From NCBI GenBank assembly GCA_016931955.1, contig JAFGDV010000031.1, forward strand, positions 1 through 48,812: a DNA stretch of 48,812 nucleotides. The letters are read 5' to 3'. Numbering within the stretch: position 1 is the first letter of the stretch; every line of letters starts with the position of its first letter. Shown here piece by piece: positions 7,052 to 48,720 of the stretch. The notes under the pieces were generated by a model. The model was not told where the DNA came from and searched no databases. It was given only the letters and a program-made list of their open reading frames with translations. Source of the DNA: Candidatus Altiarchaeota archaeon. Its GTDB lineage: Archaea; Altiarchaeota; Altiarchaeia; IMC4; QMZM01. The translations under genes were made by a program, and so were the position numbers.

Positions 7052-7413
7052 CCTCTTCGGTCGACGTTCTTTGTAGCCATAATGTCTGCTCCAGTTTTCA
7101 GTATGTTTTTCAATACAACGTCTCCTATCTTTATGGGCGCGTCGACTTCTATGTCTGCGATAGCATCCATTACATCAAAGATTCTGTCTTTTGGGATCGG
7201 CTTCGAGGTCTTGACGCTGACCAAAGGCAGGACGCCGTTCCTGACCGATATGAGGGAGGTCAAGCCTCGCTCAGGCGAAAAAAGCTCCCCGCGGACGTAT
7301 TCCATGCCTTGATCGCAGAGGTTTCCATAAATCTCTACAATCTTATCTCCTTCATATTCGACTTCTATCTCGCAGCCGTTAGGGCAGATAATGCATACGA
7401 ATTTCTTCTTCAT
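7048..7413 (-). CDS. DUF1667 CxxC metal-binding subunit of the GlpA-like operon
   Basis: CIICPNGC..GNLC..G, SVKTSKPIPK, APIKIGDV, ATKN. Confidence 0.88.
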   Translation of the reverse strand: MKKKFVCIICPNGCEIEVEYEGDKIVEIYGNLCDQGMEYVRGELFSPERGLTSLISVRNGVLPLVSVKTSKPIPKDRIFDVMDAIADIEVDAPIKIGDVVLKNILKTGADIMATKNVDRRG

Positions 7414-7417
7414 TCTT

Positions 7418-7540
7418 CTACTCTGATAATGCGTTCAGAGGGGTCAGTAGACCCCTCAATACCCGTTGTGGGTGTATGAGGCCTATAGCCTCATTTTCGC
7501 AGCCATTCGGGCAAATAATGCAGATGAATTTCTTCTTCAT
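7418..7540 (-). pseudogene. 40-codon false-start ORF: duplicate of the first 15 codons of the DUF1667 gene followed by three hairpins
   Basis: MKKKFICIICPNGCENEAIGLIHPQRVLRGLLTPLNALSE*; 39/45 nt identical to 7369-7413; ATGA overlap with the upstream gene stop. Confidence 0.75.
7438..7494. repeat. Cluster of three short hairpins
   Basis: GAGGGGTC-agta-GACCCCTC (7438-7457), ACCC-gttgt-GGGT (7461-7473), ATGAGGC-ctata-GCCTCAT (7476-7494). Confidence 0.85.
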
Positions 7541-8769
7541 TCTACTTCGACCCTCAATTCTTTAATGCCCCCCAAGTCCTTGCTCTTCAGGGATAAACGG
7601 ATCATCTCAGACGGCACAGCCCTCGTCTTCAGGATTTTTTTCACGACCTTGCCGCCGTCTTTCACTATGATCTTCTTGTCTCTGCCTGGACAGAATACGC
7701 GAAGAGACAAGGTAACATCTTTTTCTCCGCTGATCCTTTGAGGGAGAACATAGCGGACGCCGTCTCCGGGAATCACGCTGATTTTGCTTTCAGGAAAGCT
7801 TACGCCTTTAGCGTATTCTGCAGCAGATTTTCCGGCGAGCTCGCTCTCCAACGTAACCCAGTCCACTACGTCGTGAACGTGTAAAACGTTGCCGGAGGCG
7901 AATATTCCGGGAACAGAGGTCTGCAGGTATTCGTCCACTACTGCGCCAGCCGTCACAGGATGCAGTTCTATACCGGCTTGCCGAGAAAGCTCGTTCTCCG
8001 GTATCAAGCCAACTGAGAGCAGAAGAGTGTCGCATTCCATCCTTTTCTCGGTTCCAGGTATGGGATTCCATTGTTCGTCGACTTGAGCTATTGTAATAGA
8101 TTCAACCCTCCGCTCTCCCTTGATGTCGACGACGGTATGGCTTAAGTACAGAGGGATATTATAGTCTTCAAGGCATTGAACTATGTTCCTTGAAAGACCG
8201 CTGCTGTAAGGCAGGATTTCTATGACAGCTAGAACACTGGCGCCCTCCAGGGTCAGCCTCCTCGCCATGATCAAGCCAATGTCTCCTGAACCAAGGATTA
8301 CAACCTTTCTTCCGACCATATAGTTCCTCAGATTTATCAGGTTTTGAGCGCATCCTGCAGTGTAGATTCCAGCTGGTCTGTCGCCTGGGACACAGATGTT
8401 CCCTCTAGTGCGTTCGCGACAGCCCATTGCTAGTACGACAGACTTAGCCTTCACCCTCAAAAAGCCCTGAGGACTGCAGACGATAAGCCTTTTATCGTTC
8501 ACTGAGAGGACCATGCTGTTGAGCATGTATGGGATCTTGAGGTTTTCCACTTCATCGATGAAGCGTTGCATGTATTCTGGGCCGGTAAGAGCCTCCTTGA
8601 ATAATTCTATGCCAAAGCCTTCGTGGATGCATTGATTCAATATTCCCCCAAGGCTTTCGTTTCTCTCTATGAGGAGAACATCTACGCCATTCTTTTTCGC
8701 AGACAAGGCCGCTGAAAGCCCGGCTGGTCCACCCCCGATCACCGCTACGTCAACACTTCTCTCATTCAT
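7537..8769 (-). CDS. FAD/NAD(P)-dependent pyridine nucleotide-disulfide oxidoreductase
   Basis: VIGGGPAG, GGILNQCIH.GFG, GCRER, GSGDIGLIMARRL, GNVLHVHD. Confidence 0.92.
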   Translation of the reverse strand: MNERSVDVAVIGGGPAGLSAALSAKKNGVDVLLIERNESLGGILNQCIHEGFGIELFKEALTGPEYMQRFIDEVENLKIPYMLNSMVLSVNDKRLIVCSPQGFLRVKAKSVVLAMGCRERTRGNICVPGDRPAGIYTAGCAQNLINLRNYMVGRKVVILGSGDIGLIMARRLTLEGASVLAVIEILPYSSGLSRNIVQCLEDYNIPLYLSHTVVDIKGERRVESITIAQVDEQWNPIPGTEKRMECDTLLLSVGLIPENELSRQAGIELHPVTAGAVVDEYLQTSVPGIFASGNVLHVHDVVDWVTLESELAGKSAAEYAKGVSFPESKISVIPGDGVRYVLPQRISGEKDVTLSLRVFCPGRDKKIIVKDGGKVVKKILKTRAVPSEMIRLSLKSKDLGGIKELRVEVE

Positions 8770-10229
8770 TTTCTCCTCAGATCCTTCGCCCTTCCAATGA
8801 AGAGCTCAGAGCCCTCACAGTTAAGCCGCAGATCCTTCTCAGTCATACTGTGATGCTCCTCCATGATCTCCACAATCTTCGGCAGACAAAAACCACTTTG
8901 ACATCTGCCCATGCCGGCGCGGCACCTTCTTTTTATTGCATCGATGTTCCTGACCTTGAAGGGATTATCTAAGGCATCCAATACCTCCCTCTCGGTGACA
9001 GACTCACACCTGCAAACGATACGGCCATATGCTGGGTCTTCTTTGATGAGTCTTGCTTTCTCTTCATCTGGGAGCTGATTGAACCCTATTTTGGGCTTCC
9101 TCCTGGGATTGAATTCTTCTTTGGACCTCAGTTCAGTTGAATCACCTACCATAGCGGCGACTTTCTCTGCGATAGCCGGCGCCGCAGTAAGCCCCGGCGA
9201 CTCTATACCTATTAGATTGATGAATCCAGGGGTTTGTGGATCTTCCTCTATGACGAAGTCTGCTGCTTTAGTTGAGCCTGCTGGGGTCAGTTTAGGGCGA
9301 ACTCCGGAGAAGCTTCTGATGAAGTCCATTCTGCTGATCTCTGGTAGAAGCTCCCTTGCTTCATTGTAGAGCTGATCCATCACCTCGCAGGTTGTGGATA
9401 CCTCTGGTTCACATATGTATTCAGCAGAGGGTCCAAGCATTATGTTTCCATGGATTGTAGGTGTTATGTGGACACCTAATCCTCCGACGTCCTTCGGAGG
9501 GACAGGGTATACAAGGTGTTTTATCAGATTCCGTCTATTTTTGTCCAGGATGTGGTATTCACCCCTGCAGGGGTATATCCTGTACTTATCGATACCTACC
9601 ATAGCAGCTATCTTATCAGAGTATAGACCAGCACTGTTAACCACAATCTTTGATCTATAGCTAACTTTGTTCGTCTTCACTGTGAAGTTGTCTTTTTTCT
9701 TTTTTATATCCTCAACCTTGGTTGACAGGATGATTCTCACACCATTGCTGAGGGCGTTTTCCGCCAGAGCAATTGTCAGATCGAAGGGGTCTAGGATCGC
9801 TGAGGATGGGGAGTATAAAGCTGCGAATGCCCGTATGTTGGGCTCTAATCCCTTCACCTCCTCCCCGTCTATTATTTCAAGCCCATGGGTCCCGTTTCGG
9901 TCTCCTGTCTCCTTCAGCTTCCTTAGGTAGGGGATTTCTTCAGCTTTTTTGGCTACAACGAGTTTGCCTACTTCTTCATAGGGAACACCCAGTTCGCTGC
10001 ATAGGGAGGGCAACATACGGTGTCCTTTCACGTTCAATTCAGCCTTCAGGGTTCCGGACTGAACGTAGAAGCCTGCGTGCGCTACGCCAGAGTTTCTGCC
10101 CGAAGTACCCATGCAGACATCGCATTCCTTTTCGAGGAGTATCGTCTTTAGCTCGTATTTTGAGAGCTCCCTTGCAATAGCGCATCCAACAACGCCTCCC
10201 CCTATTATGAGAATATCACACTCCCTCAT
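8766..10229 (-). CDS. GlpA/LhgO-like FAD-dependent oxidoreductase with C-terminal BFD-like [2Fe-2S] domain
   Basis: IIGGGVVG, TSGRNSG..HAG, GIESPGLTAAPAI, VCRCE..RAGMGRCQSGFC. Confidence 0.9.
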   Translation of the reverse strand: MRECDILIIGGGVVGCAIARELSKYELKTILLEKECDVCMGTSGRNSGVAHAGFYVQSGTLKAELNVKGHRMLPSLCSELGVPYEEVGKLVVAKKAEEIPYLRKLKETGDRNGTHGLEIIDGEEVKGLEPNIRAFAALYSPSSAILDPFDLTIALAENALSNGVRIILSTKVEDIKKKKDNFTVKTNKVSYRSKIVVNSAGLYSDKIAAMVGIDKYRIYPCRGEYHILDKNRRNLIKHLVYPVPPKDVGGLGVHITPTIHGNIMLGPSAEYICEPEVSTTCEVMDQLYNEARELLPEISRMDFIRSFSGVRPKLTPAGSTKAADFVIEEDPQTPGFINLIGIESPGLTAAPAIAEKVAAMVGDSTELRSKEEFNPRRKPKIGFNQLPDEEKARLIKEDPAYGRIVCRCESVTEREVLDALDNPFKVRNIDAIKRRCRAGMGRCQSGFCLPKIVEIMEEHHSMTEKDLRLNCEGSELFIGRAKDLRRK

Positions 10230-21040: not shown

Positions 21041-21045
21041 AAAAA

Positions 21046-24209: not shown

Positions 24210-24212
24210 CTT

Positions 24213-29063: not shown

Positions 29064-29066
29064 CTG

Positions 29067-31107: not shown

Positions 31108-31129
31108 TTTATAAAAAAAAGGGTCAAGC

Positions 31130-33145: not shown

Positions 33146-33207
33146 CTTTTATAAGTATAAGGTATCTATTTTTCTGCTTTGGTTATATATTACTTCTAGG
33201 CAATTAA

Positions 33208-35406: not shown

Positions 35407-35451
35407 CTTATATATTTATATATGGAGACAACAATAGATTAATTGCAGAAG

Positions 35452-35964: not shown

Positions 35965-35967
35965 TCT

Positions 35968-38505: not shown

Positions 38506-38544
38506 GATCTTATAGATATAAGGCTTTGTTTCATAAATCATATT

Positions 38545-39054: not shown

Positions 39055-39072
39055 TCCATATCATAATATAAC

Positions 39073-39327: not shown

Positions 39328-39337
39328 ACTCCGAGAA

Positions 39338-40297
39338 ATGGAAGACAACAGAAGGCTTTGGGTGTGCATAGCATTGCTGGCAGTCCTTAACGTATCCACC
39401 CTCGTCTATCTCCTTCAGTCGCATAGTGCAACAAACAGCGTGCTGGATTCCATCAAGGCTAACATATCCTCACAGGATGACGCCTTTAAATCCTACCGGA
39501 GTCAGCAGAGCGCCGAGATGGACTCACTTGAAGCCAGCATAAGTAATGCCTCCAAGTCCTTAGACGCCAGGGTTTCTGCCTTGGATAGTAGATTTAATCT
39601 CTTCGTGAACGACTTGGATTCTCGAGTGGAGGGTCTTTCTTCGAGGGTTGATTCCTTGGGTGAGGAATCTGAGGAAAAATACGAGTCCTTGACGGGTAAG
39701 ATATCTGGGTTGGAGGATTTGACGAAGGGCGTCGACGTCGAGCAGTTGAAGTATTCCGTCGTCATCGTTATGGTAAACAACGACGTCGTCGCAAGCGGCA
39801 CGATCGTTGACCCTGACGGCTTCGTCGTCACAAACAAGCATGTTGTGGAGGCCATCGGCAGCGAAGACATTATCCGCGTTGAACTCTACAATGGCCGAAA
39901 GTATAGGGCCTCTGTTGTGGCTGAGAGCTCTACGAAGATTGATCTAGCGCTTCTCCGAATCCAGGGCAGCGACCTTGGTCTCTCCTTCCTCGAATTCGAA
40001 GACGTCAGCAACATCAAGACAGGCGATAAGGTCTACGCTATAGGTAACCCATTGGGGCAGGACTTGACGAAGTTCACTGTAACCAATGGCATCATCAGCG
40101 GCTTCCGGGAGGAGAAGAGCGTCTACTATATTCAAACTGATGCAGCCCTTAATCCTGGGAACTCCGGCGGACCCCTAATCAACAACAACGGCAAAGTTGT
40201 AGGCATAGTCAACATGGGCTACATCTATGCTGAAGGATTGAGCTTCGCTATCAGATCAGACATCGTACAACAATTCCTACTAGAAGAAATGCACTAG
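39338..40297 (+). CDS. Membrane-anchored trypsin-like (HtrA-type, no PDZ) serine protease with coiled-coil stalk
   Basis: N-term TM; TNKHVV, DLALL, AIGNP, QTDAALNPGNSGGPL. Confidence 0.92.
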   Translation: MEDNRRLWVCIALLAVLNVSTLVYLLQSHSATNSVLDSIKANISSQDDAFKSYRSQQSAEMDSLEASISNASKSLDARVSALDSRFNLFVNDLDSRVEGLSSRVDSLGEESEEKYESLTGKISGLEDLTKGVDVEQLKYSVVIVMVNNDVVASGTIVDPDGFVVTNKHVVEAIGSEDIIRVELYNGRKYRASVVAESSTKIDLALLRIQGSDLGLSFLEFEDVSNIKTGDKVYAIGNPLGQDLTKFTVTNGIISGFREEKSVYYIQTDAALNPGNSGGPLINNNGKVVGIVNMGYIYAEGLSFAIRSDIVQQFLLEEMH

Positions 40298-40317
40298 AAG
40301 TATTCTCTGAGTCTTTT
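40294..40317 (-). pseudogene. Orphan duplicate of the last 8 codons of the DUF763 gene
   Basis: AAA AGA CTC AGA GAA TAC TTC TAG (KRLREYF*) vs AAA AGA CTC AGA GAC TTT TTA TAA (KRLRDFL*) at 40836-40859. Confidence 0.65.
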
Positions 40318-40318
40318 T

Positions 40319-40834
40319 TTAGGCCCCCAGGTAGACTATTTTTCTGCCAACCATTCTGGCTTCGGGTGTCATCTTGTGCGGTTGGCTGCGTCCGGGTCCC
40401 AAGATGTGTTCCACATCTATTTTACGCGCAGTTAATGCATCTGATATCAGGGAGCGGTGACAGCGCCAGGGAATGGCTTCGGCGCACATCAGAGCAAGTT
40501 TTTTCTTTTTCGCAAGCTCCGGCAGCGTATTCAAGCTTTCTTCGAATTCCTTTGACTGCATGTGGTCTGCGTAGCCGCGAAAAGACGCATTCGTCAAACC
40601 CACATTCACGGAGTCCTTCCTCGCCTTCCGCAACCCACCCAAACCGGCCATATGGAGGTAGTCTACGCCTTTTTCTTTCAGAGCCCTGGGTAATGTTTCC
40701 CTGTTGAACTGGGGATTGTGGCGCGACCACGGGATGCTGCGTACATCAATCACTTCGTCTATTCCGTATTCTTTAAGCAGGCCGATGAAATCTTCTAATG
40801 ACCTGGTCGAATGCCCTATGGTGAATAGTTTCAT
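40319..40834 (-). CDS. DUF488 family protein
   Basis: FTIGHSTR, DVRSIP.SR.NPQFN, LGGLR, ALMCAEA.PWRCHR. Confidence 0.92.
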   Translation of the reverse strand: MKLFTIGHSTRSLEDFIGLLKEYGIDEVIDVRSIPWSRHNPQFNRETLPRALKEKGVDYLHMAGLGGLRKARKDSVNVGLTNASFRGYADHMQSKEFEESLNTLPELAKKKKLALMCAEAIPWRCHRSLISDALTARKIDVEHILGPGRSQPHKMTPEARMVGRKIVYLGA

Positions 40835-40835
40835 C

Positions 40836-41906
40836 TTATAAAAAGTCTCTGAGTCTTTTTATTGCGTATAGTTTTTCTTTCTGGTCTATTCTGGCGGCGT
40901 CTACTGCCTCCTGCAGCGTATTTATCGTGTGGTCGTATGTTTTCCTGTCCACTGGGTAGGGGAAGCCGTCTTTTCCGCCGTGGGCGAAGCTGAACCTTGC
41001 CGGATCCTTCCAGCTTGGTTCGGCTCCGTAGACTATCTCGGATACGAGGGCTAATGCCCTCACCCTCTTGGGGCCTATGCCCTTCAACGCTATGAGTTCC
41101 TCGTAGTTTTGGGGCTGTATCTCGTACGCCTTCCGCAGGACTTCGAAGCCGCCTCTGCCGACGTCTACTTCCAGCACCGGGTGATGGGAGGGCATTATGA
41201 GGGTCTTCTGTTTGCCTTCCCTTAGGTACTGGAGCAGATGCCCTGGGTTATCATTAACTAAGTCGACGCTTGTCTTCCGGGCTTCCTCGCTCTTCCTTGA
41301 GGTCATGTCCAGTGTTTTTTTCTCCAGTCTATCAGAGCATATCCCGGAGTGGGGTTCCTCTACGAAGGATTCCACGTTGTCTGAAAGCCAGTGGTATCTT
41401 CTAGCATAATTCTCATTCATCCCCTGCTGTACTACCGCCCACTCGCCTTCCTCAGTCAGGAAGAAGCTGTGGTGGTACAGTTGGTAGGAGTCCTGGATGC
41501 ATGTATTGTCTACCTTCGCCGAAATCCTGCTCGCATACTTCAGCTCTTCTATCTCCTTTGTAGACAAAGGAAAGACTTCGGCGGCTTTTTCTATCTCTGC
41601 CGGGGTCTTACGAGAAGCAGCTCCTTTGCCGCCTGCTACAATGATCCCTGTTTCTGGGGTGATTGCCATCTTCAGGGCGCCGCAGGCTGTCGTCGTTGTC
41701 CCGGAAGAATGCCAGTCGAAGCCTATCACGCACGTGAAGGCCTGGAACCAATGGGGGTCAGCTATCCTCAGAAGAAATTCCTTTTGACCGTATTCTTGGA
41801 CGATTACTTCAGTGATCGCGGAGGAAAGCCTCACCATCCTGTTGAACAGCCATCTGGGAGCGCGTCCTCCATGCAGTGGCAGATCAGCTGTCCCGGTCTT
41901 CTTCAT
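40836..41906 (-). CDS. DUF763 family protein
   Basis: GTADLPLHGG.APRWLF, DWHSSGTTT, LYHH, VVQQGMN, FAHGGKDG.PYPVD. Confidence 0.92.
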   Translation of the reverse strand: MKKTGTADLPLHGGRAPRWLFNRMVRLSSAITEVIVQEYGQKEFLLRIADPHWFQAFTCVIGFDWHSSGTTTTACGALKMAITPETGIIVAGGKGAASRKTPAEIEKAAEVFPLSTKEIEELKYASRISAKVDNTCIQDSYQLYHHSFFLTEEGEWAVVQQGMNENYARRYHWLSDNVESFVEEPHSGICSDRLEKKTLDMTSRKSEEARKTSVDLVNDNPGHLLQYLREGKQKTLIMPSHHPVLEVDVGRGGFEVLRKAYEIQPQNYEELIALKGIGPKRVRALALVSEIVYGAEPSWKDPARFSFAHGGKDGFPYPVDRKTYDHTINTLQEAVDAARIDQKEKLYAIKRLRDFL

Positions 41907-42574
41907 CTTACAATGTCGAACAGTTCATTTATATCATCTATTTCATGGTCTGCGTTTGATTTTATTGATCTGCCATTGTAACCGTATCTTGCGAAGCAGG
42001 TCTTCATCCCGATCTTTTTAGCGCCTTCGATGTCCCTCTCCAGGTGGTCTCCTATGAAGAGGCATTCCTCCGCCTTCATATCCAGTTCCTCCAGTGCCTT
42101 CTTGAATGGCTCAAGGTTGGGTTTCTTCTTTCCAGTGTCGCTGGATGTTATCACCACGTCAAGTAGGTGGCCTATTTCTAGGGCGGAGATTCTCAACCAG
42201 GCCTGCATCTTCTCGGCGTCTGTCACTATGGCAAGCTTTATCCCCTTCTTGGCGAGTTCTGTTAGCGTCGAGACCACGTGGGGGTAGGGTTTCAGGTAGG
42301 ATATCTTGGTCTTACGGTAGGAGTTTATCCCCGCAGCCATGATGCGGTAGTCCTCTCTACCTAGAACCCTTCTGCTGAATTCCTGGAAGACCTCCTGGTA
42401 TTCTATTCCCTGATCAGAGTATATGTTGAATAATGTCTTTATGGCTTCCTCTTTTTTCATCTCTAAGCCAGAATCGATCATGGCGTCAACTGCATTCTCC
42501 ACGCACATCCGCTTCAACTTCATGAAGTCGATCAAGGTGTTGTCTAAGTCGAAGAGGACTGCTTTGATTGGCAT
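41903..42574 (-). CDS. HAD-superfamily hydrolase (subfamily IA)
   Basis: FDLDNTL, IVTD, KKP, IGDHLERDIEGA. Confidence 0.93.
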   Translation of the reverse strand: MPIKAVLFDLDNTLIDFMKLKRMCVENAVDAMIDSGLEMKKEEAIKTLFNIYSDQGIEYQEVFQEFSRRVLGREDYRIMAAGINSYRKTKISYLKPYPHVVSTLTELAKKGIKLAIVTDAEKMQAWLRISALEIGHLLDVVITSSDTGKKKPNLEPFKKALEELDMKAEECLFIGDHLERDIEGAKKIGMKTCFARYGYNGRSIKSNADHEIDDINELFDIVR

Positions 42575-42575
42575 T

Positions 42576-43235
42576 TTAGTCCATGAAACCCAGTGCTTCG
42601 TCTATTCTTCCGAGTTCTATTCCCGTTGTGCGTGAGCCTGTCACATATCCGTTAGAGTTCGCTATGAGCCCGGATTTCACGAACGGGAAGCCGAAGTTAA
42701 CTGAGCCGGTCAGGCCTTCTACCCTGAATATGCTCGCCAATTCCATCAGTTCGCTTCCGGCGTCCGGGTGAACCAGGAAGCCCTTGTTTGTTGCAACACA
42801 GCAGGCTCCGACTTCTTCATGGCCTGCTATTCCTCCCTGGACGACCTCGACCCCTAAGATATCCCTCACACCCTTTATGTCTGATATCATGGGGCTCACT
42901 AAGGCTGCTTTGTCGTTGCACGCTATGAGGTTCCCAAGGGCTGTGCTCTTGTCCTTGAGCCTGCCTATTGTAGTATCTACATCATTTTCCTTTAGCTTCT
43001 TCTCCAGGAGGGTGGCTTCTTCGTCGGAGATGAAATAGGGTAGGAGGAGACTATTTGAGTTCCCGGCACAGAATAAGCCTATGAGGTTTGTGCCGTAGAG
43101 TGTCGTCTTTATTACTGGAGTGTCTAAGGCCTCGATCTTCGGGAACTTTTTGGATAGTATGGCGTATCTGTCGGAGCACATCCCAAGGAGGCCTATGAAG
43201 TCCTCTCCCTGAACAGAAGTCTGCTGCACATGCAT
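42576..43235 (-). CDS. eif6: Translation initiation factor aIF6
   Basis: GTNLIG..AGNSN, ALGNLI.CND, ATNKG.LVHP, GSVNFG, TTGIELGRI. Confidence 0.93.
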   Translation of the reverse strand: MHVQQTSVQGEDFIGLLGMCSDRYAILSKKFPKIEALDTPVIKTTLYGTNLIGLFCAGNSNSLLLPYFISDEEATLLEKKLKENDVDTTIGRLKDKSTALGNLIACNDKAALVSPMISDIKGVRDILGVEVVQGGIAGHEEVGACCVATNKGFLVHPDAGSELMELASIFRVEGLTGSVNFGFPFVKSGLIANSNGYVTGSRTTGIELGRIDEALGFMD

Positions 43236-43238
43236 TTG

Positions 43239-43481
43239 CTACTCAACCAAGGATGCGATCACCTTATCCTCTTCTTTTATTATCTTGATCCTTATCCTGC
43301 GGGGTGGTTTTTTCACGCCCTTCACCCACAGGGCCTCGTTGATGGAGGGATCAACTCTGACATTGGACAGCTTCAGCTTCCCTGTCAGATACTCCTTGAT
43401 GGTTTTTGTCGCACTGCTGGCTCTCTTCGTCTTCGAGACCCTGAACGCCTCCCTTAGGGGTATGGTGTAGACTTCTTCCAT
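43239..43481 (-). CDS. rpl31e: 50S ribosomal protein eL31
   Basis: YTIPLR, KRA, INEALW.KG..KPPRRIRI. Confidence 0.95.
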   Translation of the reverse strand: MEEVYTIPLREAFRVSKTKRASSATKTIKEYLTGKLKLSNVRVDPSINEALWVKGVKKPPRRIRIKIIKEEDKVIASLVE

Positions 43482-43482
43482 T

Positions 43483-43914
43483 TTATCTTATGTAGTTTCC
43501 AGTGTCTTCTTTCTCCTTGTTTTTGTCCTTCATCGCCACCTTAGGCATCGGTATGGGAGACGGCAGCTGTATCTCCCTCGCCAGTATTACTGTCTCAGTG
43601 ACGCAGTTGAATATTATGAAGTTGTGGATTTCCTCCGCCATATCCAGGGGCAGGTTTTTTTGGCCGCTTTTATCCCATTCTTTGACGGCCTTCTCCATTT
43701 TTTCCTCTGAGTCCTCGACGATCGTTTTCCCTGTGATTTTGACCTCGCCTATGTCTGGCTCGTATTTGCTCTTGAACGTGAATCCTATGGAGAGCCTGCC
43801 TTCAACCCGCTCTACGTCCGTTATGGTGCTGTTGTTGTTGACGGTTATGTAGCCTTGGGGTTCATTGAACTTGTTCGCCTCTATGCTATCGTACCTTACG
43901 CTGATTTTAATCAT
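43483..43914 (-). CDS. Conserved archaeal hypothetical protein (SecB-like fold pattern)
   Basis: I.A.K, VNNNS.I..V, F.F...YEP.IG...I.G, LAREIQLPSPIPMP. Confidence 0.7.
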   Translation of the reverse strand: MIKISVRYDSIEANKFNEPQGYITVNNNSTITDVERVEGRLSIGFTFKSKYEPDIGEVKITGKTIVEDSEEKMEKAVKEWDKSGQKNLPLDMAEEIHNFIIFNCVTETVILAREIQLPSPIPMPKVAMKDKNKEKEDTGNYIR

Positions 43915-43967
43915 GTTTTTACCCCAGACTCAATTATAATAGATAGATTTAGACTTAATAACTAAAG

Positions 43968-44402
43968 ATGACGACTGTGGTCGCAACCGGGGTCTTCACA
44001 ATACTCCATCCAGGGCATGTACTCTACCTGGAGGAGGCCAGGAAGCTTGGCGATAAACTTATCGTGATAGTGGCTAGAGACAGCATGGTTGAGAAGAAGA
44101 AAAACCAGCGGTTTGTCTCGGAGAAGCAGAGGCTCGCCGTCGTTAAAGCGCTGAAGACAGTCGACTCCGCTGTTCTTGGAGACGAGGAAGACATTTTCAA
44201 GCCCATAGAGGAGATCAAACCGGACATCATCGCCCTGGGAAAAGACCAGGACTTCGATGTAGAAGCCCTAGAGAAGGGGCTGCGGGATAGGGGCCTCAAA
44301 GCCAAGATTGTCAGGATCGAGAAATACTGGGATGAGGGCTTGCACAGCTCAAGGCACATAATAGCCAAGATCAAGGAACAGGAGAATGCATCTCAGGGTT
44401 AG
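43968..44402 (+). CDS. ribL: Archaeal FAD synthase (cytidylyltransferase family)
   Basis: ATGVFTILHPGH..YL.EA..LGD.L.VIVARD, PDIIALGKDQ, SS..I. Confidence 0.85.
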   Translation: MTTVVATGVFTILHPGHVLYLEEARKLGDKLIVIVARDSMVEKKKNQRFVSEKQRLAVVKALKTVDSAVLGDEEDIFKPIEEIKPDIIALGKDQDFDVEALEKGLRDRGLKAKIVRIEKYWDEGLHSSRHIIAKIKEQENASQG

Positions 44403-45384
44403 GAGGGAACAAGGTGAGGAAATCCGGAGAAAACTTATTGAGTTGGATTTTTTCGACTACAACAGGCGGATTCTGTCTGAGGGTGGCTTTTTGTTGATCC
44501 CTGTCACCGGAGTTGTTGAGTTAGAGGATTCTGAGTTAGTAGATGTTGTAGGTGAGAAGGTAGCTAGGAGGACCAGATCTCTGAGGGAATCCCTGGAGGG
44601 TAGACTAAACCCTGATGGACTAGGTCTGCTGCCCAGGGCCTTCGACGTTATAGGAGACATAGCAGTCCTGGAACTGCCTGATGAGTTACTGGATAAGAAG
44701 GATGTTGTTTGTGAGGCATTGCTTGAAACGTTCAAGAACATCAAAGTGGTTGCCGTAAAGAAGACCAGGGTTGGAACCGAGTTCCGTACCAGAAGCCTTG
44801 AGATCGCAGCCGGCGAAAACAGGTTGGAGACAATCCATAAGGAACATGGATGCCTTTATAGGTTGAACATTGAATCCGCCTATTTTTCTCCTCGCCTCGG
44901 CTCTGAGAGGCTGAGGGTCGCTTCCCAGGTAAAGGACGGTGAGCGTGTCCTTGTCATGTTCGCAGGAGTCGGGCCTTACCCGATCCTGATAGCTAAGAGA
45001 TCAAATCCTAGGGAAGTGGTTGCTGTAGAGTTGAATCCCAGCGCTTTTGATTATATGAGGGAAAACATCGCCTTGAATAACGTCGACGTCACCCCTATTT
45101 TAGGGGACGCTCGAAATGAAACACAGAAGCTGGGTAAATTCGACAGGATCGTTATGCCTTTACCTAAGGACGCAGGCAGTTTTCTGGATACGGCGCTGCC
45201 TGCGTTAAATAGGAATGGCGTGATACACTTCTACGACTTCTCCTCTGGGGAGCAGGAATCCTCTAGGGGGGTAGAGGAGATTTGCGGAAACCTTGGCTAC
45301 AGGATCAGGGTACTGGATGCCGTGAAATGCGGCTCATACTCTCCTGAACTCTACAGGGTCTGCATCGACTTCCGTGTTGTCTGA
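44386..45384 (+). CDS. trm5: Trm5/Taw2-family SAM-dependent tRNA methyltransferase
   Basis: FDVIGDIA, HKEHGC, YFSPRL..ER, MFAGVGP, ELNP, DRIVMPLP. Confidence 0.88.
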   Translation: MHLRVRREQGEEIRRKLIELDFFDYNRRILSEGGFLLIPVTGVVELEDSELVDVVGEKVARRTRSLRESLEGRLNPDGLGLLPRAFDVIGDIAVLELPDELLDKKDVVCEALLETFKNIKVVAVKKTRVGTEFRTRSLEIAAGENRLETIHKEHGCLYRLNIESAYFSPRLGSERLRVASQVKDGERVLVMFAGVGPYPILIAKRSNPREVVAVELNPSAFDYMRENIALNNVDVTPILGDARNETQKLGKFDRIVMPLPKDAGSFLDTALPALNRNGVIHFYDFSSGEQESSRGVEEICGNLGYRIRVLDAVKCGSYSPELYRVCIDFRVV

Positions 45385-45401
45385 CATTTATATATACATT
45401 G

Positions 45402-45418
45402 TTATAATAATATTATAA
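45402..45418. promoter_or_regulatory. Palindromic operator candidate at the TA operon start
   Basis: TTATAAT-aat-ATTATAA reaching the toxin ATG, downstream of TTTATATA (45388-45395). Confidence 0.45.
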
Positions 45419-45708
45419 TGATCAAAAACCTCTCAGGGAGGAGAATAGTCTGGACAAAACACGCTGCCAAAGAGGTTCTGGAGGATAACTTCAATCCGGC
45501 TCTGATAGAAAAATGCTTGGATAGGATTGCTAAATTCCCAGAATTCAACGAAAACAAAAACAGGGGAGTCACCAAACTGGATGGCAGATATTGCACTCTC
45601 ATCTATGTCAAGATGAAGCTTGGTTTGAAGGTTGTAACTTGCTGGGAAAGCAGCCAAAACGAAATAAAGGAGTACAGAAGGGCTGTTAGAGGATACAAGA
45701 ATAAATGA
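45418..45708 (+). CDS. Putative type II toxin (DUF4258/RelE-like ribonuclease)
   Basis: IVWTKHA..E, short beta-rich core, KVVTCW; small basic protein upstream of an antitoxin-like gene. Confidence 0.6.
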   Translation: MIKNLSGRRIVWTKHAAKEVLEDNFNPALIEKCLDRIAKFPEFNENKNRGVTKLDGRYCTLIYVKMKLGLKVVTCWESSQNEIKEYRRAVRGYKNK

Positions 45709-45709
45709 G

Positions 45710-46063
45710 ATGAAAAAAATGGAAAAACTAAAGTGTGTTTGCGGGGCGAAAGCAGAGAAACTAAAGACTGATTTGGAGTTATTCGATGGAACCATATTGT
45801 TGAAGGATGTGGACGCTTATTACTGCCCAGAATGTAAGGAAGAGATATTAACTACGGATCAGCTGTCTTCGGTCAGGGAGAAATTACGTGGAATTTTGCC
45901 AAATTTTGAAGCCTTCAGCCTCAGGAAGAAGGTAACCCAGCTTGGGAACTCCCTGTCGATCCCCCTCTCCAAAGAGATAACAGAATTCATGCATCTACAA
46001 AAAGGTGGGGAAGTAAAAATCACGGTCAAAAACAGACAACGGCTGATAATCGACGTCTGCTGA
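45710..46063 (+). CDS. Putative antitoxin: YgiT/MqsA-type Zn finger fused to an AbrB/SpoVT DNA-binding domain
   Basis: CVCG..LKDVDAYYCPECKEE then RKKVTQLGNSLSIPLSKEI..LQKGGEV.I. Confidence 0.75.
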   Translation: MKKMEKLKCVCGAKAEKLKTDLELFDGTILLKDVDAYYCPECKEEILTTDQLSSVREKLRGILPNFEAFSLRKKVTQLGNSLSIPLSKEITEFMHLQKGGEVKITVKNRQRLIIDVC

Positions 46064-46071
46064 TTGAGGAT

Positions 46072-46101
46072 AAAGTCTGCGTAGACTTCCAGCTTCTCTA
46101 G
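46072..46101 (+). pseudogene. Orphan duplicate of the last 10 codons of trm5
   Basis: KVCVDFQLL* vs trm5 RVCIDFRVV*; gtctgcgtagacttcc vs gtctgcatcgacttcc; TAG overlaps the rli stop. Confidence 0.7.
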
Positions 46102-47810
46102 CCGATGTAGTAGTATTCTCCGCTCTTCTTTTGTTCTCTATCCTTAACTGAGCCTTCCTTGTTGGCTCTTGGTCTGCCCGTTTCCGGATCGCGTCTGAAT
46201 GTGACGTTCATCTTTTTCAGGAATTGGTTCATCCCTGCCCTCGGGCTAAGGGGCTCTGAAGCCTTTCCGTTAACGCCGGAAACGCCTTCGAAGACCATCA
46301 ATTCATCTGATAGGTAGTCAATCAATAGGATGTCGTGTTCCACTATGAGGACTGAGACCTCGTTGTCTATTGCGAACTTCTTCAGGTATTTACCGAGGGC
46401 CAGCCTCTCTTCGACGTCCAAGTAGGCTGAAGGCTCATCCAGGAGGTATAGGTCTGCTTCCCTTGAAAGACAGTCAACGATAGCCACCTTCTGGAGTTCG
46501 CCGCCGCTTAGCTCATCAACTTTCCTATCAATCATGTGCGTCAGATTGAATCTCTGAACCAGCTCAGGCTTCAGTTTCAACGAGTTCACGGTTACGGGCT
46601 GAGGTCTAATGTACTGCGGCTTATAGGATATCTTCGCCTTCAACCCTACGTCCAAGTTATCCGCTTCTATGTCGCCTGCCAGCATCCTGACGAAGGTCGT
46701 CTTACCTGTGGCGTTAGGCCCCAGTATTCCGAGGATTTCAGGAGCATATAACACACCTGAGTTAATGGACAGCCTGAATCCGTCGTATTCCTTCACCAAA
46801 TCGGGGTAGGATAGTATCTCGTTTAGTTCCTTTTTCTCACTCGGCGGCCTTACCTCAAACCGGATTTCGTCCCTGAATCTGGTGTTCTCCGATCTAAGAA
46901 ATCCGTCAAGGTACTCGTTTATGCCGACTCGGACGCTTTTTATGTTCGATATTATCCCATATGCGCCGGGTTTCCCGTAGATTACGTGCACGTAGTCTGA
47001 CAGGTAATCTAAGACTATCAGGTCATGTTCTACCACGAAAACGTATCTGTCCTTTATTCCTCTGACGGCTTTTGCAACATTCAACCTCTCCCTGACGTCT
47101 AGGTAGCTCGAAGGCTCATCTAGGAGATAGATGCTAGCATCCTTTGTAAGGCATGCTGCTATCGCAAACCTCTGCAGTTCGCCGCCGCTTAACTCGTTAA
47201 CTTCCTTGCCTAAGGCGTTCCTCAGGTTCAGTGTTTCTATGATCTCCTCTAAGTTGCCTAATTCATCACCCTTTTCTAATACACCCCGAACAACGCCTCC
47301 AACGTGTTTAGGAATCGAGTCAACATATTGTGGCTTGTAGACTGCCCTGACCTCCTTGTTCCTCAGCTTCTCCACATAGGATTGTACCTCTTTCCCGCGG
47401 AAGCGCTCGATTATTTCCTCCCAGCCTGCCTCAGCCCCCAGATTCGGCTTCAGTTCGCCTGAGAGGATCTTCATGACTGTGGTCTTACCTATGCCGTTGG
47501 CTCCGACGATGCCAACGACGCCCTCCCGCGGAGTCGGCAGATTATAGAGCCTGAAACCGTTCACACCATACTGGTGTACTGGTCGACCGACTTCTTCTGG
47601 GAGATTGATTATGGTTATAGCACCGAATGGGCATTTTTTCACGCATATGCCGCATCCAGAACACAAGTCCTCAGCGATTACAGGCTTATTCGTTTCCTCG
47701 TCCACTACTATGGTCTCATCGCCGGTCTTAACCCTCGGACATATCCTCACACAGAGGAAGTTGCATTCCTTCGGCTTACAGCGGTCCTTGTTTAAGACTG
47801 CGATCCTCAT
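46098..47810 (-). CDS. rli: Ribosome recycling ATPase ABCE1/RLI
   Basis: Fe-S domain (CKPKECNFLC..CP, CSGCGICVKKCPF), two ABC cassettes (LSGGELQ twice), C-term GRPRANK..DREQK.SGEYYY. Confidence 0.97.
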   Translation of the reverse strand: MRIAVLNKDRCKPKECNFLCVRICPRVKTGDETIVVDEETNKPVIAEDLCSGCGICVKKCPFGAITIINLPEEVGRPVHQYGVNGFRLYNLPTPREGVVGIVGANGIGKTTVMKILSGELKPNLGAEAGWEEIIERFRGKEVQSYVEKLRNKEVRAVYKPQYVDSIPKHVGGVVRGVLEKGDELGNLEEIIETLNLRNALGKEVNELSGGELQRFAIAACLTKDASIYLLDEPSSYLDVRERLNVAKAVRGIKDRYVFVVEHDLIVLDYLSDYVHVIYGKPGAYGIISNIKSVRVGINEYLDGFLRSENTRFRDEIRFEVRPPSEKKELNEILSYPDLVKEYDGFRLSINSGVLYAPEILGILGPNATGKTTFVRMLAGDIEADNLDVGLKAKISYKPQYIRPQPVTVNSLKLKPELVQRFNLTHMIDRKVDELSGGELQKVAIVDCLSREADLYLLDEPSAYLDVEERLALGKYLKKFAIDNEVSVLIVEHDILLIDYLSDELMVFEGVSGVNGKASEPLSPRAGMNQFLKKMNVTFRRDPETGRPRANKEGSVKDREQKKSGEYYYIG

Positions 47811-47811
47811 C

Positions 47812-48441
47812 TCATCCAAAGAACATATTATATGCTTTCTCTATATCGTCCCCCGAACCTATGGAGCCATGACCAGGATAAAGCACATCTATCCCCTCCC
47901 TCCTATGCAAGTCCAAGATCCTTAGAAGCGACTTCTCCAATTCACTCATACTCCCGCCGGAGAGATCGACCCTCCCTATTCCGTCGGCGAAGACCGTATC
48001 CCCAGAAAACAGTGACTTGGATTCTGGCTCATACAGGCAGATGCCTTCTATTGTATGCCCAGGGGTATGCATAATCTCCAACGTCGTTTTTCCCAGATCC
48101 ATCCTCTGTCCGTCAACAAGCCTCACATCTACCTTCATCTTAGGGGCCTCAGCAGAAAACCAATGAGCGAGAAGCCTTTCCTTGTCTCCCTTCTCCAGGA
48201 ATTCAACGCCGAGTTCGTGAACACACAACCTTGCTTTGGTTCTCTCCAAGATCCTCTTATTCCCGCCGACGTGGTCGAAGTGACAGTGCGTGTTTATCAG
48301 AAAATCGACTCCAACACCCAGTTCATCAATCCTCTGTAGGACTGGCCCCGGATTAATGCCTGAATCAATAACCGCTGTTTTCTCCCCAACAACGATATAG
48401 CAGTTGGAGTCGAAGGACTCGCTCAATACGGGATAAATCAT
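47812..48441 (-). CDS. Metallo-beta-lactamase-fold hydrolase (glyoxalase II-like)
   Basis: THCHFDHVGG, HTPGHT, FSGD, YPGHG. Confidence 0.94.
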   Translation of the reverse strand: MIYPVLSESFDSNCYIVVGEKTAVIDSGINPGPVLQRIDELGVGVDFLINTHCHFDHVGGNKRILERTKARLCVHELGVEFLEKGDKERLLAHWFSAEAPKMKVDVRLVDGQRMDLGKTTLEIMHTPGHTIEGICLYEPESKSLFSGDTVFADGIGRVDLSGGSMSELEKSLLRILDLHRREGIDVLYPGHGSIGSGDDIEKAYNMFFG

Positions 48442-48540
48442 GTTAAGGATTAAGGATTCAGGCGATTTAACTTAGCTGAATCACATAGTACTTACAGCAG
48501 CTCTTTCAGTCATAACACCATTACATCACGCCGAGGTTGA

Positions 48541-48720
48541 AGCGACATTCGTCGCTAGCCCTCGCCTTAAACCAAATACCCAACATGCCGAGGTGGCAGA
48601 GCCGTGGGCACCCTTTTCTTAGCAAGAAAAGCGTGCATCAGCAAGACAGCGTTGCTGTCTTGTCTGACTCGAGACCGAAGGTCTCGCTCACGGAAAAGAA
48701 AGATCGCCGCTTAGCGTCGA
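48541..48720. repeat. Hairpin cluster B (multi-branched structure) related to cluster A
   Basis: AGCGAC-attc-GTCGCT; closing stem CCGTGGGC/GCTCACGG enclosing CTTTTCTT-agc-AAGAAAAG, CAAGACAGC-gtt-GCTGTCTTG and GAGACC-gaa-GGTCTC; then TCGCCGC-tta-GCGTCGA. Confidence 0.85.

Follow-up and report, generated by a model that had tools for sequence, protein, structure and literature searches.

Genes and tRNA genes in this archaeal genome have taken up insertions, old and recent, within their first or last 15-100 nt, and each insertion is flanked by a direct duplication of its target (X - insert - X′). In the 48,812-nt stretch of DNA analysed here (the window), four protein-coding genes have this arrangement; judged by Pfam models or relatives, all four are full length. 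The preliminary description had proposed that DNA was inserted at gene termini with the host gene left intact; its four protein cases are all present in the sequence at coordinates that we verified, and the host genes are indeed intact.

Duplicated termini of four protein-coding genes

The start of the DUF1667 gene is a direct repeat of 50 nt at a spacing of 127 nt, and that of hisA a direct repeat of 19 nt with one mismatch at a spacing of 86 nt. The features of these start-type cases are:

7370-7419, minus strand: functional copy of the DUF1667 start repeat, ATG at 7411-7413, continuous with the gene (7048-7413; Pfam DUF1667 match)
7418-7540, minus strand: relay ORF of 40 aa that begins at the spare ATG, crosses the insert and stops 4 nt ahead of the functional ATG
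7420-7496, minus strand: insert between the DUF1667 start copies, 77 nt with two hairpins (7438-7457 and 7476-7494)
7497-7546, minus strand: spare DUF1667 start, ATG at 7538-7540, in overlap with the FAD oxidoreductase stop (gene 7537-8769)
28885-28903, minus strand: functional copy of the hisA start repeat, ATG at 28894-28896 (gene 28180-28896; Pfam His_biosynth match)
28893-28982, minus strand: hisA relay ORF, beginning at the spare ATG, its terminal TGA overlapping the functional ATG
28904-28970, no strand assigned: hisA insert, 67 nt, with a hairpin at 28923-28935, TTGATCAA at 28939-28946 and a hairpin at 28945-28963
28971-28989, minus strand: spare hisA start, ATG at 28980-28982
28990-29066, no strand assigned: extra hairpin modules (28995-29016 and 29032-29063) lying between the spare hisA start and the FAA-hydrolase stop (gene 29067-29819), with a match at C2:29007-29060

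The hisA insert carries a dispersed hairpin module (13 non-self matches), and a search of the genome for a second copy of the 77-nt DUF1667 insert found none. In 5 of 9 relatives the DUF1667 ATG touches or overlaps the stop of the FAD oxidoreductase gene (0-4 nt), and the spare start at 7497-7546 is the ancestral junction with that gene.

The end-type cases enclose cargo genes:

40294-40315, minus strand: spare DUF763 end, its stop at 40294-40296 overlapping that of the convergent trypsin-like protease gene (39338-40297; stop 40295-40297)
40319-40834, minus strand: cargo DUF488 gene between the DUF763 end copies, starting 1 nt past the DUF763 stop, its own stop abutting the spare copy
40836-40857, minus strand: functional DUF763 end, stop at 40836-40838 (gene 40836-41906; Pfam DUF763 match)
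45355-45384, plus strand: functional trm5 end, stop at 45382-45384 (gene 44386-45384)
45385-46071, plus strand: trm5 cargo cassette, an AT-rich promoter-like stretch followed by two small genes (45418-45708 and 45710-46063)
46072-46101, plus strand: spare trm5 end, its stop at 46099-46101 overlapping that of the convergent RLI/ABCE1 gene (46098-47819; stop 46098-46100)

In both cases the spare stop and that of the convergent neighbour overlap within a CTAG. The DUF763 copies match exactly over 15 nt (at 40846 and 40304) around a DUF488 gene that is unique in the genome; DUF488 lies beside DUF763 in 0 of 80 other DUF763 loci. The trm5 cargo genes encode 96 aa (45418-45708) and 117 aa (45710-46063), the latter antitoxin-like by weak matches to a YgiT zinc finger and an antidote-like tail. 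Trm5 and RLI are directly convergent in 4 of 11 relative loci. Of the relatives, G008 carries a different cassette at this junction, G015 has a fragment of an antitoxin there, and in G014 the trm5 end is tandemly duplicated (24 nt) with no insert. Compared with relative G001, the functional trm5 end is alike at 8 of 9 residues and the spare end at 5 of 9; the spare looks like a decayed relic rather than a native allele. As noted at the outset, spare copies keep their codon register, and the empty sites in relatives, seen for one end-type case (trm5/RLI) and one start-type case (FAD oxidoreductase/DUF1667), indicate that they mark the ancestral junction.

Recurrence in the genome, its relatives and tRNA genes

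We matched gene ends to sequence at most 3 kb downstream (score at least 12), with 4865 permuted pairings as control. This stop-anchored test returned 28 of 1623 genes where 3.3 were expected (11 matches are ends of called paralogues, 17 are not), and a start-anchored test with the same score threshold returned 19 of 1603 against 3.5, many of them paralogues; such matches are commoner than in permuted controls at both termini, as had been anticipated. Local direct repeats with a score of at least 16 number about 1000 per kb of spacing where the copies are less than 100 nt apart, versus about 3 per kb at 10-20 kb. In the first 400 kb of a closed, one-contig relative (G026) we observed 10 stop-anchored matches against 2.3 expected. 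Outgroup segments of 400 kb gave no excess in an Aenigmatarchaeota genome (4 vs 4.7 expected) and 8 vs 5.0 in Methanobacterium, where 6 of the 8 are paralogue ends. One 362-aa gene has a spare end both in the genome of the window (G000) and in G026.

The duplicated-terminus pattern is real: it is not chance, because stop-anchored matches number 28 against 3.3 in permuted genes, and not an assembly artefact, because the closed relative shows the excess and an independent contig bridges the trm5 junction. That G000 is a 46-contig metagenome bin (92% complete) fragmented by repeats, that many of its contigs terminate in repeated hairpin modules, and that independent contigs leave the hisA junction unbridged, breaking off at 28959 within the insert, would fit chance matches or chimeric assembly, but this scarcely credible reading is largely refuted by the stop- and start-anchored permutations, by the same pattern in a one-contig genome, by the independent contig that covers 41703-46200 without any difference, and by copies that do not have the long exact overlaps required for mis-joins.

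The fifth suspected case, a tRNA-like 5′ end, stood in part. The fragment is there, next to a hairpin module:

48584-48603, plus strand: spare tRNA-Ser-like 5′ fragment, tRNA position 1 at 48587, matching the 5′ end of the C22 tRNA-Ser and that gene's own spare copy
48608-48636, plus strand: type-A hairpin module abutting the fragment

Its partner tRNA is absent from the window, across which a tRNA call returned no tRNA; the contig ends 208 nt past the fragment, and the partner is expected beyond that end. Modules after 48636, up to 48812, run parallel to C22:268-470.

Genome-wide, a copy of the tRNA 3′ end lies downstream of 7 of 19 tRNAs in G000 (upstream control, 0/19), and a copy of the 5′ end lies upstream of 4 of 19 (control, 0/19). 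Relatives have such copies at 3/22 (3′ end) and 5/22 (5′ end) tRNAs, with controls at 0. The tRNA repeats span the T-loop to the 3′ end, and their inner boundaries fall at the T-loop and D-loop, both of them hairpin loops at the DNA level. Homologous inserts occupy tRNA-Arg, tRNA-Phe and tRNA-Met, beginning within a common trailer hairpin and finishing at the T-loop.

Hairpin modules, inserts and recombinase searches

The type-A module is 45 nt long and gave 18 forward-orientation regex matches in G000, of which 9 were judged true by eye. In 8/8 assessable copies the adjoining 15-mer recurs 90-220 nt away across the module, and in 7/7 classifiable cases the module faces the spare copy. The repeat is found for 5/7 type-A modules of relatives (control, 0/7) and for 7/14 type-B modules (control, 2/14). 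Type A occurs in 18 of 30 relatives and 6 of 7 families, at 80-93% identity (82-100% among the relatives' matches listed). One hairpin module is found at the spare junction of both start- and end-type cases; the two types, which the preliminary description had allowed to differ in mechanism, do share one.

Duplicated repeats range from 14 to about 100 nt. Five short inserts derive from dispersed modules; another five, like both cargo inserts, occur just once in the genome. Most of the larger inserts are toxin-antitoxin cassettes, which form a tandem array of three in C40, and relative G022 has a tandem array of six units. The insert in C37 opens with a hairpin that repeats the end of X almost exactly but inverted, which is a snap-back signature. 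A CCAC linker after the module is common to the tRNA-Ser events and a protein event in C18, and at tRNA junctions the module ends resemble the T-loop; junction microhomology was judged by eye at a handful of junctions. The C13 copies are identical over 47 nt and then continue into a diverged yet homologous tail, and several events with identical copies hold full inserts (C37, C26, tRNA-Arg, tRNA-Phe). Differences between copies predominate on the outer side in 10 events and on the inner side in 5, with 1 tie and 4 identical pairs (82 inner vs 98 outer differences, p = 0.26). They are not concentrated on the terminus side, and the earlier view of the copies as allelic versions, with incoming DNA supplying a replacement terminus, has no statistical support; the trm5 spare, too, looks like a relic.

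No recombinase lies within the window, as first described, and family searches find almost none genome-wide. Pfam-family searches of G000 gave no match to Y1_Tnp, RVT_1, Cas1, the TnpB domain, DDE_Tnp_1, rve, IS110 or resolvase; an unrecognised family could escape them. The sole integrase-like match in G000 is weak and lies on a contig other than that of the window; an integrase-like ORF adjoins tRNA-Cys on C38. A search for Y1 transposases found none in G000 or G001, although G026, where the gene is flanked by hairpins, and G024 have one. Y1 transposases are present in only some of the genomes showing the pattern, and an HUH system, as once suggested, is unlikely as its general cause. With G000 at 92% completeness and its assembly interrupted by repeats, an enzyme could have been missed. 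We found no known transposition system that explains the pattern.

Candidate mechanisms and known systems

Insertion with long target duplication was reportedly described for restriction-modification systems by Nobusato et al. in 2000. In the study of Furuta, Abe and Kobayashi 2010 (PMC2853133), such insertions are bacterial, with repeats of >30 bp and up to ~400 bp; their screen retained no archaeal case, and the authors give the mechanism as unknown and propose that the repeats allow amplification. Both patterns place a selfish cassette without its own transposase between long, variable direct repeats that are drawn from a single-copy target and may overlap a gene 3′ end, and both have an empty site in a related genome; here, in contrast, the host is archaeal, the cargo is toxin-antitoxin cassettes or just 40-200 nt of hairpins, tRNA genes are targeted too at their 5′ and 3′ ends, repeats are as short as 14 nt, and a conserved hairpin module has strict polarity. 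On this comparison, the pattern is best read as an archaeal form of insertion with long target duplication.

The explanation that we tentatively prefer is a polar insertion with long, variable target duplication produced by template switching during host replication or repair, not by a transposase; the range of repeat lengths does not match a fixed transposase stagger. Signs of such switching are the snap-back hairpin of C37, the CCAC linker common to tRNA-Ser and C18 events, the T-loop-like module ends at tRNA junctions and the homologous inserts of tRNA-Arg, tRNA-Phe and tRNA-Met. We infer that DNA synthesis would proceed outward beyond the gene end, switch under the guidance of microhomology to other DNA, copy it as far as a stable hairpin, and switch back 15-100 nt behind the exit point, so that the terminal stretch is copied twice. 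The insert would be a hairpin array copied from dispersed genomic modules, unique hairpin filler, or a small selfish cassette. On this explanation, and with the same reserve, the gene is completed by whichever copy is continuous with its body, and the other stays at the ancestral junction, decaying. Short common sequences (the tRNA T-loop, D-loop and trailer hairpin) may then initiate this double switch in further tRNA genes, and recombination between repeats may yield tandem arrays. Insertions would be seen at termini because, where neighbouring genes overlap, only those with a terminal duplication persist.

FoSTeS/MMBIR, synthesis-dependent microhomology-mediated end joining and rad27/Fen1 duplications are template-switch or flap-derived rearrangements that have been described as rare mutational events, in eukaryotes and in mutants. 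They resemble our cases in their templated insertions between duplications of tens of bases, snap-back hairpins, junction microhomology and independence of a dedicated element enzyme; we know of no description of such processes as a recurrent, lineage-wide shaper of archaeal gene termini and tRNA loci. Some observations sit less easily with template switching. Symmetric repair alone gives no reason for the module end to face the spare copy every time; as a conjecture, this polarity might come from a stalling of outward synthesis where genes meet. Each cargo cassette occurs only once in the genome and was therefore not copied from within it, and some copies of the TTGATCAA module lie elsewhere than at spare copies, and one lies beside a functional tRNA end.

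It is unlikely, though the modules' own properties invite the idea, that they are non-autonomous mobile elements for which an unrecognised structure-specific enzyme nicks the module end and the target, inherently copying 14-100 nt of the latter. Their conservation across families, the duplicated target fragment adjoining nearly every copy, the strict polarity and the T-loop and D-loop boundaries would follow, but half of the short inserts are unique and have no such module, repeat length is highly variable, the non-module end of the insert is undefined, no candidate enzyme was found, and Y1 genes are present in only some pattern-bearing genomes. REP/BIME elements, said to be moved by RAYT (Y1 HUH) transposases (Nunvar et al., 2010, reportedly), are likewise short, dispersed extragenic hairpins in mosaic arrays by gene ends, and the hairpin-flanked Y1 transposase of G026 recalls them. 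Unlike that system, G000 and G001 yielded no Y1 gene, and REP insertion is not, to our knowledge, known to duplicate tens of bases of target.

Homology-facilitated illegitimate recombination, in which DNA of a related archaeon is anchored inside the gene and its far end joined just upstream of the resident terminus, making the functional terminus foreign and the spare native, is possible for the cargo cases and quite unlikely as a general account. It needs no transposase and accommodates cargo inserts that have no copy in the genome, the G008 cassette and G015 antitoxin fragment at one trm5 junction, the shared spare end of the 362-aa gene, and the diverged tail in C13. It is at odds with copy differences that are not concentrated at the terminus, with a functional trm5 end nearer to relatives than the spare, with DUF488 beside DUF763 in none of the 80 loci and with the many events whose copies are identical, and it leaves unexplained why one specific module end always forms the illegitimate joint. 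A mobile ORF in Allomyces mitochondrial atp6 is said to have supplied a foreign replacement C-terminus (reportedly by Paquin, Laforest and Lang in 1994); there too the insertion is at the 3′ end, the original terminus is a downstream relic and the gene is preserved, but that was a single endonuclease-driven event with clearly foreign sequence, whereas our cases involve many loci and no endonuclease ORF.

A two-step origin is improbable. Tandem duplication of a terminus, by slippage or an unprocessed flap, would open a harmless gap in which unrelated DNA later accumulates, as the insert-free duplication in G014 and the heterogeneous inserts might suggest; events with identical copies are already fully filled, however, and strict module polarity is unexplained.

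Site-specific integration by a tyrosine recombinase, the element bringing a replacement terminus, is highly improbable: the inserts of 40-700 nt encode no integrase, a single genome has more than 10 different targets with variable repeat lengths and, by eye, no common core sequence, and G000 has a single weak integrase-like match. What recalls it is the classical integrase pattern of the tRNA repeats, the tandem arrays of cassettes at one site and the ORF by tRNA-Cys. Integrative elements that restore their target with their own copy of its end include those with tRNA-targeting integrases, and phage 21 and e14 in icd. They share with our cases an intact gene whose displaced terminus lies beyond the inserted DNA, tRNA repeats stretching from a loop to the 3′ end and tandem arrays at a single site; the inserts here, in contrast, are tens to hundreds of bases without an integrase, hit many targets per genome and duplicate 5′ ends as well.

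Duplicated termini at protein and tRNA genes of the window

Four protein-coding genes in the window, DUF1667, hisA, DUF763 and trm5, have one terminus present twice, with additional DNA between a functional copy that completes the gene and a spare copy at the ancestral junction; coordinates and repeats bear out the four cases reported in the preliminary description. The repeats are 50, 19, 22 and 30 nt long, respectively, and involve either the gene start (start-type) or the gene end (end-type).

7370-7419 (functional) and 7497-7546 (spare): DUF1667 start repeat, 50 nt, containing the ATG and the first 14 codons
28885-28903 and 28971-28989: hisA start repeat, 19 nt, across the ATG
DUF763 end: last seven codons and stop, second copy 542 nt downstream
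trm5 end: last nine codons and stop, second copy 717 nt downstream
48584-48603: tRNA-Ser-like 5′ fragment, first 17 nt of the gene and 3 leader bases

The upstream FAD oxidoreductase gene ends in a TGA that the spare DUF1667 ATG overlaps, and the 77-nt insert places two hairpins between the repeat copies. The hisA insert consists, in order, of a hairpin, the TTGATCAA motif and a second hairpin. A DUF488 gene exactly fills the gap between the two ends of DUF763, a protein whose best named relatives are from Altiarchaeales bins. The trm5 insert comprises a promoter-like, AT-rich stretch followed by two genes of small size; the first has no family match and the second encodes a YgiT-type zinc finger with a weak antidote-like match. 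At both end-type loci the spare stop and that of the convergent neighbor (a trypsin-like protease gene and RLI/ABCE1) overlap in the palindrome CTAG. The fifth case, a possible tRNA-like 5′ end, held in part: the tRNA-Ser-like fragment is present and is followed by the hairpin modules that lie upstream of tRNA-Ser on contig C22, and the window carries no partner tRNA, which would sit past the contig end. An Rfam scan of the window returned no family at the gathering score.

An ORF of 29-40 codons begins at the spare ATG in each of the 3 start-type protein events. It is stop-free through the hairpin insert and either ends 4 nt short of the functional ATG or forms an ATGA overlap with it. These relay ORFs look like preserved translational coupling.

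Window 7418-7540 (-): relay ORF
Window 28893-28982 (-): relay ORF
G000 (the genome bin of the window) C18:8868-8972 (+): relay ORF

For annotation, spare starts and ends are a source of short false ORFs. The window also holds an AT-rich 23-nt direct repeat, its copies 62 nt apart, at 1635-1719 in the promoter-like gap before gene 1772-2980.

Frequency, assembly support and empty sites

The window makes up contig C2 in full. The genome bin (1.55 Mb, 46 contigs, 92% complete) has a coding density of 91% (n = 1,643 genes, called with a simple in-house caller), and overlap between adjoining genes is common. We compared the 60 nt before the stop of each gene with the 60 nt before each stop that follows on that strand within 3 kb, with the ends of other genes swapped in as a control. 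At a score of at least 12, matches were found for 28 of 1,623 genes versus 3.3 expected. Eleven of these are ends of real neighboring paralogs; the remaining 17 comprise about a dozen clear spare ends, two cases in a larger duplication on contig C23 and three that are weak or distant. The start-anchored test yielded 19 of 1,603 genes versus 3.5 expected, paralogs being the majority and DUF1667 and C18:8868/8969 the clear cases. The claimed recurrence of the pattern thus stands above controls at gene ends and gene starts alike. When gene calls are not used, direct repeats are hundreds-fold denser at spacings below 100 nt than at 10-20 kb. Across 1.55 Mb we count about a dozen protein cases that are clear, plus eleven at tRNAs, enough for the events to be treated statistically.

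The first 400 kb of a one-contig relative (G026, 1.39 Mb) gave 10 matches versus 2.3 expected, and its inserts are likewise arrays of short hairpins. Two outgroup genomes, taken from among the loci of DUF763 relatives, were searched over 400 kb each: an Aenigmatarchaeota genome showed no excess (4 versus 4.7), and a Methanobacterium genome gave 8 versus 5.0 expected, 6 of the 8 being paralog ends. Terminus duplication is not general to archaea; it is seen repeatedly within one order of uncultivated archaea from the subsurface.

The duplication pattern is not an assembly artifact. The run that is the probable source yielded an independent contig spanning 41703-46200 with zero differences, so that the trm5 region is bridged; the hisA junction is not, one independent contig stopping at 28959 inside the repeated module, and no contigs are listed for 29100-41700, the span that holds the DUF763/DUF488 junction. 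In a further run (X2), which contains a relative approximately 90% alike and a small share of the words, one contig (depth 2.7) joins 28897 to 29067. We place little weight on this joint as an empty site for the entire hisA-upstream hairpin region, because it comes from a single contig of 90% likeness in which the letters between the joined positions are unread.

The insertions are the derived state. In 4 of 11 relative loci trm5 and RLI are directly convergent, with stops overlapping or nearly so, and the spare trm5 end of the window matches this junction. In 5 of 9 relatives the DUF1667 ATG overlaps the FAD-oxidoreductase stop or is separated from it by at most 4 nt (spacers of 13, 13, 28 and 121 nt in the other four), and the spare DUF1667 start matches the abutting arrangement. 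The insert is thus absent at both sites in these relatives, which are distant (about 60-70% protein identity), in agreement with the gene-preserving insertion that had been proposed. A nearly gap-free genome gains DNA with its genes unbroken, as the insertion supplies a second copy of the gene end.

The trm5 end is a recurrent site among relatives.

G014 (locus L007): plain 24-nt tandem duplication of the trm5 end, without insert
G015 (locus L004): downstream of trm5, a 19-residue fragment of an antitoxin like that of the window
G008 (locus L005): downstream of trm5, a small cassette of another kind, preceded by a similar AT-rich stretch

A metagenome scan with the trm5 alignment found six loci at 53% identity or more, with RLI beside trm5 in none of them, and yielded neither close strains nor polymorphic sites. 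Elsewhere, a 362-aa gene has a spare end in both orthologs, which come from different families (G000 C4:7875-9064 and G026:385740-387841), with inserts of 101 nt and 1013 nt, respectively.

Cargo, hairpin modules and tRNA genes

The larger inserts of the genome bin are mostly toxin-antitoxin cassettes, and the short inserts are arrays of 8-12-bp hairpins.

C40:6115-8620 (-): gene end, HicAB, spare end, VapBC, spare end, MNT/HEPN, spare end
C38: AbrB/PIN cassette
C24: AbiE cassette

Each cassette on C40 is followed by another copy of the last 8-10 codons of the host gene, with 8 nt separating the fourth end copy from the stop of the convergent gene. Small genes number 0-2 per insert, none with recombinase domains, and both cargo inserts of the window are single-copy in the genome. 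Among ten short inserts tested, five are built from modules dispersed in the genome and five have no other copy there. Dispersed modules are found across the order, and many contigs of the bin terminate in them. The share of intergenic bases within perfect 8-bp-stem hairpins is 4.3% for G000 and 8.1% for G026 versus 0.3-0.4% after shuffling, an enrichment of 14-20 times in each of the two Altiarchaeales sets; the control genomes gave 0.9% (Aenigmatarchaeota) and 4.2% (AT-rich Methanobacterium). We rejected hairpin density as a clean lineage marker, as the absolute density in AT-rich Methanobacterium is similar to that of G000.

A hairpin of roughly 45 nt, denoted type A, has 18 forward-orientation pattern matches in G000, of which 9 were judged true copies by eye and 8 were assessable. 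In all 8, the 15 nt that adjoin a given end of the hairpin, always the same one, are found again across the module at a distance of 90-220 nt. Where the target is identifiable (six tRNA ends, four of them 3′ and two 5′, and one protein start), the copy adjoining the module is the spare copy (7/7). Full-length type A copies in relatives have the repeat in 5 of 7 cases (control 0/7), and copies of a type B module in 7 of 14 (control 2/14). The TTGATCAA module lies at the spare junction in the hisA, C4, C13 and C17 events; it is found elsewhere too, once beside a functional tRNA end. The insert is conserved at one end only, and this strict polarity at a conserved hairpin is a testable mechanistic clue. 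The modules and their relative orientation are common to start- and end-type events, which argues for one mechanism and against the earlier suggestion that the two types need not share one.

A 14-nt motif, TGTAGTGCCTAACT, is present as a direct repeat flanking hairpin modules at four loci; it may resemble the core site of integron attC (GCCTAAC).

G000 C23:102079-102330: TGTAGTGCCTAACT repeat
G000 C28:26209-26357: TGTAGTGCCTAACT repeat
G000 C28:31528-31602: TGTAGTGCCTAACT repeat
G000 C37:22472-22592: TGTAGTGCCTAACT repeat

The tRNA genes of the bin were identified with ARAGORN (n = 19) and searched for copies of their last 16 nt (at least 14 of 16 within 400 nt downstream) and first 15 nt (at least 13 of 15 upstream). 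A 3′ copy lies downstream in 7/19 (upstream control 0) and a 5′ copy upstream in 4/19 (downstream control 0); the corresponding counts at relatives' loci are 3/22 and 5/22, with controls of 0. The 3′ repeats start at the T-loop and extend into the trailer, and the 5′ repeats end in the D-loop or anticodon stem. Stray tRNA fragments thereby gain a concrete explanation. As one and the same tRNA has a spare piece in some genera and lacks it in others, the events are lineage-specific. Control tRNAs had copies in 0/9 cases in Methanobacterium and in 1/6 for each end in Aenigmatarchaeota, and the tRNA form may therefore extend beyond the order. At E ≤ 0.1, Rfam searches of seven tRNA loci returned tRNA plus chance matches only.

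Just 19 tRNA genes were detected in this 92%-complete bin. As many contigs end in repeated modules, tRNA genes have probably been lost at contig ends; for assembly, the modules break contigs and hide tRNA genes. Several of the detected genes have long introns (72-115 nt), and the intron of tRNA-His holds a TTGATCAA hairpin module.

G000 C38:23749-23911: tRNA gene with long intron
G000 C8:44124-44324: tRNA gene with long intron

An Aenigmatarchaeota genome (G042) has two oddities, at 217380-217620 and 342500-342560, concerning tRNA-Pro and tRNA-Thr: the second tRNA-Pro gene has an intron-like 77-nt insert in the T-loop without duplication, and the first 15 nt of tRNA-Thr are repeated 51 nt upstream. 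In the relative G022 (locus L278, G022:C185, about 1930-2950), six tandem units of about 133 nt precede tRNA-Lys. Each unit repeats positions 1-30 of the tRNA and adds a type-A-like hairpin and an AT-rich leader; two subtypes of the unit alternate.

Mechanism of insertion and relation to known systems

Repeat lengths range overall from 14 to about 100 nt. The C37 insert opens with a near-copy, in inverted orientation, of its own repeat's end, and at several junctions a few bases, identified by eye, are common to the module end and the target. Variable repeat length, heterogeneous inserts, the inverted copy on C37 and shared junction bases do not fit a transposase, and the same four features fit a copy-choice process. 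We tentatively favor template switching by the host as the source of the insertions. Synthesis would exit the gene and switch onto other DNA, copying of that DNA would stop past a stable hairpin, and synthesis would resume on the original template behind the departure point. At tRNA genes, a shared trailer hairpin and the universal T-loop would serve as two switch points, which would explain the homologous inserts at tRNA-Arg, tRNA-Phe and tRNA-Met and the observed repeat boundaries. Recombination between repeats would build arrays and could account for those on C40 and before tRNA-Lys in G022. Template-switch features observed are the flanking duplication, the templating of 5 of 10 short inserts, one snap-back hairpin (C37) and microhomology by eye.

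A wider proposal is doubtful: that Altiarchaeales have an undescribed polar form of DNA insertion, in which the 45-nt hairpin module, like the modules related to it, forms the front of the copied DNA and 14-100 nt of target are of necessity copied a second time, without a known transposase, integrase, Cas1 or reverse transcriptase. Such a process would also capture toxin-antitoxin cassettes at gene ends and remodel tRNA loci, with spare 5′ and 3′ pieces beside T-loop and D-loop breakpoints, and may give rise to non-canonical tRNA introns and split tRNA genes. That the hairpin modules are a new kind of mobile DNA is similarly doubtful.

Action of an unrecognized enzyme on the modules, which keep their orientation relative to the repeats, appears unlikely. 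Profile searches of G000 returned no match to Y1_Tnp, RVT_1, Cas1, TnpB domain, DDE_Tnp_1, rve, IS110 or resolvase. The integrase- or HUH-driven system raised in the preliminary description is left with a single weak PF00589 match, on C38, and no Y1 gene in G000; no insert contains an integrase. Homology-anchored uptake of foreign DNA appears about as unlikely. DUF488 adjoins DUF763 in 0 of 80 DUF763 neighborhoods, which offer neither a donor nor synteny for the junction, and the copies show no terminus-side excess of differences. In a test of homology-facilitated illegitimate recombination, the trm5 end was found to carry other cassettes in two relatives. The copies had been read as allelic versions; the candidate signature, differences mainly near the stop codon, was not borne out (82 inner versus 98 outer differing columns, p = 0.26, a rough count in that alignments over-extend on the inner side in some events), and of the two trm5 copies the spare one has decayed further.

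Among described phenomena, insertion with long target duplication comes closest; it is known from bacterial restriction-modification systems, and the published screen retained no archaeal case (PMC2853133). Two features agree with this phenomenon as the Kobayashi laboratory defines it: related genomes lack the insert at the orthologous position, and no transposase or integrase lies in or beside the inserts. Repeats >30 bp are the criterion there; ours span 14 to about 100 nt, several of them below that limit. The known cargo is restriction-modification, whereas here it is toxin-antitoxin-like cassettes, DUF488 or hairpins only. Our cases extend the phenomenon to archaea, toxin-antitoxin cassettes and non-coding hairpins. 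Searches of the literature on Altiarchaeales repeats, hairpins and tRNAs yielded no account of terminus duplications or hairpin modules, and we did not find the pattern described in the literature on MITEs, hairpins and target-site duplication in archaea.

Other systems differ as well. Classical IS and MITE elements have a fixed short duplication and inverted repeats at both ends, in contrast to the variable repeats and one conserved end here. Integrative elements of the tyrosine-recombinase type carry an integrase and a common core at attL/attR, whereas no insert here has an integrase. Integron cassettes require IntI and attC bounds; here there is no IntI-like match, and cassettes are bounded by copies of host-gene ends. 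Cas1-mediated integration (casposon or off-target spacer) needs Cas1, and PF01867 was found in G005 alone among five genomes searched; target-primed reverse transcription needs a reverse transcriptase, and PF00078 had no match in 5/5 genomes. REP/RAYT systems (IS200/IS605-like HUH) need a Y1 transposase; PF01797 had no match in G000 (92% complete) or G001 and is present in G026 (10 matches) and G024, G026 carrying both Y1 and DDE genes.

The sole Phage_integrase match of G000 (C38:51698-52180, E 1.7e-12, in a 441-aa frame) lies beside tRNA-Cys (51049-51124), and this locus may be an integrated element. In G026, a full-length Y1 (HUH) transposase gene at 20420-21260 has short-hairpin arrays on both sides and may represent a REP/RAYT-like system in that relative.
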